DNA of 248 bases from Escherichia coli (GTDB taxonomy: Bacteria; Pseudomonadota; Gammaproteobacteria; Enterobacterales; Enterobacteriaceae). Location: NCBI RefSeq assembly GCF_003334255.1, contig NZ_QOWU01000276.1; one strand, 5' to 3'. Shown here one piece after another: positions 3 to 32 of the stretch. Position numbers and translations under genes: made by a program. The first letter of the stretch is position 1. Each line of letters begins with the position of its first letter. The notes beneath the pieces are model-generated. The model had not been told where the DNA came from. It saw only the letters and a list, made by a program, of their open reading frames with translations, and made no database searches.

Positions 3-32
3 CAGGGACCACAAGGGCCAACCGGAAGGCTG
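3..32 (+). repeat. Collagen-like Gly-X-Y coding triplets (GPQ, GPT, GRL) giving a 9-bp DNA periodicity; may continue upstream of the window
   Basis: Frame-3 codons are cag|gga cca caa|ggg cca acc|gga agg ctg, i.e. Q-GPQ-GPT-GRL, with Pro in the X position of two triplets. At DNA level this appears as the imperfect 9-bp tandem acagggacc / acaagggcc / aaccggaag. The Gly-X-Y register breaks after position 32 (V-P-G-E). Confidence 0.5.

Follow-up and report, generated by a model that had tools for sequence, protein, structure and literature searches.

The 248-nt stretch of Escherichia coli DNA studied here (the window throughout) almost certainly spans the shaft-to-tip junction of a prophage tail-fibre gene. 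A fuller explanation, in which a collagen-like shaft carries a C-terminal tip that is folded with the help of the product of the adjoining gene and moves together with it as a cassette, is very probable when taken as a whole. The protein type, the collagen tract and the tail-fibre role have been published before and the gene is annotated accordingly in RefSeq, so that the identification itself is ordinary; collagen-like tail fibres of E. coli prophages were described biochemically in 2012, and it carries little weight as a discovery. The less understood part of the protein is the non-collagen tip, which makes up most of the window and on which the initial annotation was silent.

Identification of the tail-fibre gene

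Six-frame translation of the window showed that frame +3 is the sole stop-free frame and yields 82 aa, with stops present in each of the other five. The translation begins QGPQGPTGRLVPGEIYSIG, opens with Q-GPQ-GPT-GRL and ends in SWMV; the full reading is QGPQGPTGRLVPGEIYSIGTYIIAAIIPYATDIGRTYQPGETVQGSRLKRCAIIKDTSGNYMKANTDGIDGKLSSVPGSWMV. The gene is open at both ends of the window, which is an internal piece of a larger CDS. This translation confirmed the three perfect G-X-Y triplets that the initial annotation had read in the only long open frame, and the GC content, given there as 51%, was computed as 50.8%. A search for RNA elements in the window gave no Rfam match at E ≤ 1.

When the window was compared by megablast with 5,426 complete E. 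coli genomes, it was present over its whole length in 28 of them at 93.5-99.6% identity, and all of these matches lay under CDSs annotated as tail-fibre or phage tail protein. The best match, 247 of 248 nt (99.6%), was found in E. coli S1-CAM-02-A (L001:8001-8248), within a gene (L001:6866-8311) encoding the 481-aa WP_338671341.1, which is annotated as 'prophage tail fiber N-terminal domain-containing protein'; the window corresponds to aa 380-461 of this protein in the identical frame. The domains of this fibre are listed in Table 1. Its collagen directly follows the phage_tail_N (PfN) domain, there is no PCoil, and the 'tail fiber protein' profile phrog_366 covers residues 1-472 (E = 3e-116). 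The window also occurs in eight temperate phages with sequenced genomes, PhiR5_x and PhiR12_x, which form plaques and carry an intact fibre gene; their recorded hosts are E. coli C, MG1655 and ECOR13. The prophage tail-fibre-like protein that had been guessed from the letters alone was thus borne out, the gene being an annotated E. coli tail-fibre gene placed after gpJ and lom in a lambda-like module.

A blastn search at distant sensitivity returned the same 28 genomes, with 86 places in all and every one of them at least 93.5% identical. Carrier genomes hold a median of 3 copies and a maximum of 8. One example is NZ_CP060083.1, with copies at 1,495,996 and 1,819,532. In strain G1/2 one tip copy is found under a 'tail fiber protein' CDS and another under a 'prophage tail fiber N-terminal' CDS, and these copies appear to belong to different prophages; the multiple copies may stem from recombination among resident prophages or from repeated lysogeny by phages with a common receptor. 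At two loci, L008:3280-4779 and L010:3224-4779 (strains 99RCEF and G1/2), the annotation gives a fragmented or frameshifted fibre gene, whereas the tip DNA can still be translated intact. Some fibre copies are therefore decaying, and any copy, including that of the window, may be non-functional. The tip haplotype of the window is closest to a lambda-type Stf, and the window may come from any of the three fibre types in Table 1.

Table 1. Features of the window, domains of the fibre encoded at locus L001, and tail contexts of the tip.
Feature	Location	Strand	Basis or remark
Tail-fibre coding frame	window 3..248	+	only open frame; 99.6% identity, same frame, to annotated tail-fibre CDSs
Collagen-like (Gly-X-Y)n shaft end, Q + GPQ-GPT-GRL	window 3..32	+	last 3 of 33 triplets in the closest relative
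First 72 codons of the ~92-aa non-collagen C-terminal tip (VPGEIYSIGTYIIAA...SWMV)	window 33..248	+	~20 codons and the stop lie beyond the window
Variable patch 1: tip codons 17, 18, 21 (I/L, A/G/I/T, A/I/T)	window 78..92	+	locus comparison
Variable tip codon 35 (Q/S)	window 132..134	+	locus comparison
Variable patch 2: tip codons 44, 48, 49 (I/L, A/E/T, N/S); 47 and 50 silent	window 159..179	+	locus comparison
Variable tip codon 63, four alleles (I/K/N/R)	window 216..218	+	locus comparison
PF08400 phage_tail_N	L001 fibre residues 1-134		Pfam E = 2.1e-42
PF01391 collagen	L001 fibre residues 135-232		E = 3e-8 (135-190), 1.8e-5 (191-230)
PF03406 Phage_fiber_2 (Pf2)	L001 fibre residues 239-280		E = 7.8e-16
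PF01391 collagen	L001 fibre residues 290-389		E = 3.2e-8, 4.7e-8
C-terminal tip, 92 aa	L001 fibre residues 390-481		no Pfam match
Lambda-type Stf context	L001, L003, L005, L007, L009; decayed L008, L010		anchor PF08400
Sp5/933W-type fibre, adjoining N4-gp56-family capsid gene	L002, L004		divergent PfN and Ala/Ser coiled coil
P2 gpH-type fibre, baseplate V-W-J-I cluster	L006		PF12571 and 2 × Pf2

The collagen-like tract

Codons 6-32 of the window encode GPQ-GPT-GRL, and the Gln codon at 3-5 completes a fourth triplet as its Y residue, the Gly and Pro of that triplet being encoded upstream of the window. Collagen-coding DNA amounts to only 30 of the 248 bases, and about 87% of the window (33-248) codes for the tip. 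Taken alone, the three triplets are weak and within chance: mononucleotide shuffling of the window gave at least three consecutive G-X-Y triplets, in one frame or another, in 6.5% of cases, and shuffling of the frame-3 peptide, which is rich in Gly (12 of 82 residues), gave such a run in 16%. It is the context in the relatives that makes the tract real. In the L001 fibre the triplets of the window close an uninterrupted run of 33 (aa 291-389), the G-X-Y runs of this protein being of 19, 13 and 33 triplets, 65 in total, and the Pfam Collagen family PF01391 matches this 99.6%-identical gene four times. The last tract of the other relatives (94-99.6% identical) comprises 22-44 uninterrupted triplets, and the total number of triplets in fibres with the same tip ranges from 22 to 101. 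In the eight intact relatives the tip always comes directly after a G-X-Y tract ending in GPQGPTGRL. A collagen repeat, taken as a long run together with a PF01391 match, was found in the relatives, the window itself holding 3 triplets only, and it was found likewise in the P2-like and podovirus-type fibres with the same tip. Both the PF01391 assignment and the proposal that the tract is the 3' end of a longer upstream array, as put forward in the initial annotation, were upheld by these relatives; homology led neither to an unrelated protein family nor to another frame.

The C-terminal tip and its variation

The tip gave no match in Pfam, even at E ≤ 10, none in NCBIfam, and nothing below E = 0.75 in a phmmer search of the PDB. 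The PfC family PF06820 had no match in the full L001 protein or in the isolated tip, again even at E ≤ 10. Weak PHROG matches of the tip were confined to the C-terminal ends of tail-protein profiles, the best being phrog_17472 (E = 3e-4). A word-indexed search over 5.8 billion proteins and an exhaustive phmmer search over 1.84 billion representatives both returned true relatives of the tip only at 89% identity or above. Given that only such close relatives were found, and these in 28 genomes, the tip is on present sequences a narrow and young family, so far seen only in E. coli.

Four further candidates from these searches were set aside. P0015 and P0016, considered as distant relatives of the tip, are long repetitive proteins whose scores were inflated by summing pieces of ~34-42 residues over 7 repeats. 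P0008 (137 aa, on a 2,641-nt contig) has the tip fused to a response-regulator-like N-terminus, and in P0009 (147 aa, on a 641-nt contig) the first ~58 residues of the DUF4376 protein described below are joined to the tip at a shared 'GEI'; both are probably assembly chimeras. AlphaFold2 modelling of the tip gave a mean pLDDT of 34 from the single sequence and 39 from a 12-row family alignment, with short strands only and no helices, the fold being unreliable at this confidence. The family alignment lacks depth, and folding of the domain probably requires a trimer.

Variation in the tip was assessed over ten loci and the window. The results showed that 13 of 93 tip codons vary and that 9 of these 13 change the amino acid (Table 1). 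Three or four alleles are found at four sites, codons 18, 21, 48 and 63, all of them inside the window. The sole difference between the window and L001, ATC (Ile) against ACC (Thr) at 81-83, falls in codon 18, the most variable codon of all. In every comparison with the window the pN/pS ratio was 1.2-2.6, or undefined where there were no synonymous changes, with at most 14 changes per pair. This pattern would fit diversifying selection on a contact surface, and with counts this small it is suggestive only.

Gene neighbourhood and a proposed mobile cassette

In L001 the gene order is minor tail protein L (gpL), C40 peptidase, tail assembly protein, gpJ, lom (Ail/Lom), fibre and DUF4376 protein, and the order gpJ-lom-fibre-DUF4376 is repeated in L003, L005, L007 and L009. 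The L001 fibre gene thus stands where stf, which encodes the side tail fibre, stands in lambda. In all ten loci the next gene starts 15-19 nt past the stop codon of the fibre gene, with a conserved AGGAG ahead of it, and encodes a ~190-aa protein; this protein matches DUF4376 (PF14301, E = 1.6e-15) and had no relatives in the PDB at E ≤ 1. Tip and DUF4376 gene were co-inherited in every locus examined, across the three tail contexts of Table 1. The DNA in common with the P2-like context is only ~1 kb long (L006:4355-5343) and extends from inside the G-X-Y tract to near the end of the DUF4376 gene, while the junction between lambda-type and Sp5-type (siphovirus and podovirus) genes lies within the collagen-coding DNA of collagen tract 1.

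In S1-CAM-02-A an IS21-family element (istA/istB, ISSso4-like; L001:8779-11414) is inserted in the 3' end of the DUF4376 gene. The displaced fragment of that gene lies at L001:11416-11553, and similarity to the loci without the element picks up again exactly beyond the insertion. An 18-nt inverted match (17/18; TTCCGGGCTCATGGATGG) was also noted between window positions 229-246 and a site ~275 nt downstream in the DUF4376 gene (L001:8539-8522). It is found in all ten loci at E ~0.005-0.01 per locus; homologous loci count as a single observation, and the match may be due to chance.

In the lambda-like and Sp5-like contexts, a gene for a trimeric autotransporter with a YadA anchor is located ~0.4-0.8 kb past the DUF4376 gene (L001:12235-13551, L004:6716-7831, L005:5755-7266, L007:6070-7239, L008:5736-7193, L009:5736-7199 and L010:6173-7498); in L001 the IS21 insertion widens this distance. 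Its product matches the immunoglobulin-binding EibD (PDB 2xqh) at E = 1e-83, and no such eib gene is present in the P2-like locus L006. Past the eib gene and a small hypothetical gene, an S6-family peptidase gene of the serine-protease autotransporter type was found at L001:14384-16248 and L007:8072-9216, which suggests further cargo at that end of the prophage. The linkage of tip, DUF4376 gene and eib gene fits the EPclC example 'P-EibA ORF-401' of Ghosh et al. (2012), and, since an eib gene lies downstream here, it is plausible but unproven that a fibre with this tip is P-EibA ORF-401 itself.

Proposed mechanism and alternative readings

By analogy with characterised fibres, three chains would wind into a collagen triple helix acting as a thin, rigid spacer. 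The N-terminal anchor would attach the fibre to the phage, at the tail tip or the baseplate. Like PfC of EPclA, the C-terminal tip would trimerise and fix the register of the helix; from its distal position on the fibre it may contact a receptor on the surface of the host. The tip would be folded by the DUF4376 protein, its cognate intermolecular chaperone or transient cap, much as V22 gp27 acts on its fibre. The distal collagen, the tip and the DUF4376 gene would travel together, as a cassette of ~1 kb, among tail modules of lambda-like, Sp5/933W-like and P2-like type. On the upstream side, crossover would take place in the repetitive collagen-coding DNA, where tip cassettes may be swapped and shaft length altered; this would also account for the variable numbers of triplets. 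We regard it as reasonably likely that the tip, which is not homologous to PfC, is the receptor-binding element. More tentatively, and with somewhat less than even confidence, the tip may be an uncharacterised E. coli receptor-binding domain, with no relatives below 89% identity among 1.84 billion representatives and no Pfam family or predictable fold, that is diversifying at four sites, whose cassette has spread by collagen-repeat crossover over siphovirus, podovirus and myovirus tails and accumulates in prophages of the same rare hosts through one strain-specific receptor.

The main rival to a receptor-binding tip holds that the tip is a knob for trimerisation and registration only and that the DUF4376 protein is the adhesin, held at the fibre end like gp38 in T2/T6-type phages. 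The PfC domain of EPclA has been demonstrated only as a trimerisation module (PMC3368898), DUF4376 proteins have been proposed as transient caps at the fibre end (PMC10579305), and the strict co-inheritance of tip and DUF4376 gene would suit such a division of labour. However, the studies of V22 and A5 assign to the DUF4376 protein the role of a chaperone or transient cap and not that of a virion adhesin, and the amino-acid-changing, multi-allelic variation is concentrated in the tip, as far as can be read from a comparison of tip codons only. We consider this rival unlikely. Variation gathered at a handful of multi-allelic codons towards the C-terminal end of a protein of receptor-binding type could also call to mind a dedicated device, either a diversity-generating retroelement or an invertible segment with alternative tips. 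However, no template-like duplicate of the tip DNA was found in the ten loci of 9-16 kb, the genes annotated in the 4.5-8 kb on each side include neither a reverse transcriptase nor an invertase, and just 9 amino-acid sites vary; with template copy, reverse transcriptase and invertase all missing from these loci, such a device is therefore highly improbable.

Two readings of the collagen tract itself were weighed in the same way. A bacterial surface collagen-like adhesin of the Scl1/Scl2 and Lcl type (NCBIfam NF038329, NF038330 and NF046116) or of the BclA type is suggested by the NCBIfam profiles SclB, Lcl and SclA, whose matches to the collagen parts of the fibre have E-values from 2e-38 to 9e-28, and by a weak BclA match in the PDB. 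The NCBIfam matches cover the Gly-X-Y regions only, however, and their scores are far below the curated cut-offs, at 132/325, 101/500 and 98/400 bits; the other fibres with the same tip likewise score below the cut-offs, the N-terminus is a phage fibre anchor, and the gene is found in phages that have been sequenced and form plaques as well as in three types of phage tail module. Scores below the cut-offs and a phage setting together effectively refute a surface adhesin, to which we give hardly any credence. A chance origin of the three triplets, in a Gly-rich protein that is not collagen-like, would agree with the shuffling frequencies given above, but relatives of 94-99.6% identity extend the tract upstream to 22-44 triplets with significant PF01391 matches, and the probability left to this reading is negligible.

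If the tip is a receptor-binding element, tip and DUF4376 gene would form a compact, portable host-recognition cassette, found as they are on three tail architectures, and could serve to retarget phages or tailocins when the receptor is known. Since eib genes are physically linked with the cassette in lambda-like and Sp5-like prophages, its host range would bear on the spread of these serum-resistance genes.

Comparison with known systems

The prophage collagen-like proteins EPclA to EPclD of E. coli were defined by Ghosh et al. (2012; PMC3368898). EPclA was shown there by CD, SEC-MALS and EM to be a dumbbell-shaped trimer with a genuine triple helix melting at 42 °C, and its PfC domain to trimerise and to nucleate refolding of the helix (PMC3368898). 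The L001 fibre is of the EPclC-type architecture. It has the same succession of PfN (PF08400), Col, Pf2, Col and a non-PfC C-terminus, lacks a PCoil, and carries the GxPGGPxG interruption in its first collagen domain (GDPGGPPG, aa 185-192). The assignment is made by domain layout, the N-terminus belonging to the window's own gene lying outside the window. Neither ED1a nor 55989 is one of the strains whose genomes, 28 in all, carry the tip. As with the EPcl proteins, a genome may hold several copies, and differences in collagen length amount to whole numbers of triplets. The present tip departs from the 2012 classes in being found also on EPclB-like and P2 gpH-type scaffolds, neither of which that classification includes.

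The lambda Stf/Tfa locus is similar in its position after J and lom, its PF08400 anchor, its Pf2 repeat and the small accessory gene that comes next. It differs from the locus described here, where the fibre has a collagen shaft and a DUF4376 partner; lambda Stf is not known to have a collagen shaft, and its partner Tfa is of the Caudo_TAP type. With the surface proteins Scl1/Scl2, Lcl and BclA the fibre has in common a non-hydroxylated (Gly-X-Y)n rich in Pro and charged residues and, presumably, a globular, trimer-nucleating domain, whereas it falls below all family cut-offs, has no surface anchor and lies in a phage structural context.

The fibres of L002 and L004 resemble ORF67 (ECs1228, L0121) of Sp5/933W, both in the late region with an N4-gp56-type capsid gene and in the layout of anchor, Ala/Ser coiled coil, collagen, Pf2 and collagen. 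ORF67 ends in PfC (PF06820), whereas the L002 and L004 fibres end in the unrelated tip. In the short-tailed Stx2 phage Sp5 this EPclB-type fibre (ORF67/ECs1228) is essential for infectivity and was located at the tail end by immuno-EM (PMC5155283).

The partner gene has its closest parallel in gp26/gp27 of the Alteromonas phage V22 and gp8/gp9 of A5, where a fibre gene is likewise followed by a gene for a ~190-aa protein with a C-terminal DUF4376. The host genus is a different one, no fibre sequence similarity was detected and no collagen shaft has been reported for these phages. Experiments support a tail-fibre chaperone function of DUF4376 proteins, and a transient cap has been proposed as their mode of action (PMC7289586, PMC10579305): V22 gp27 is needed for active fibres (PMC7289586), and the A5 fibre is chaperone-independent (PMC10579305). 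As in the loci described here, the fibre and chaperone modules of V22 and A5 are common to unrelated and morphologically different phages (PMC7289586, PMC10579305).
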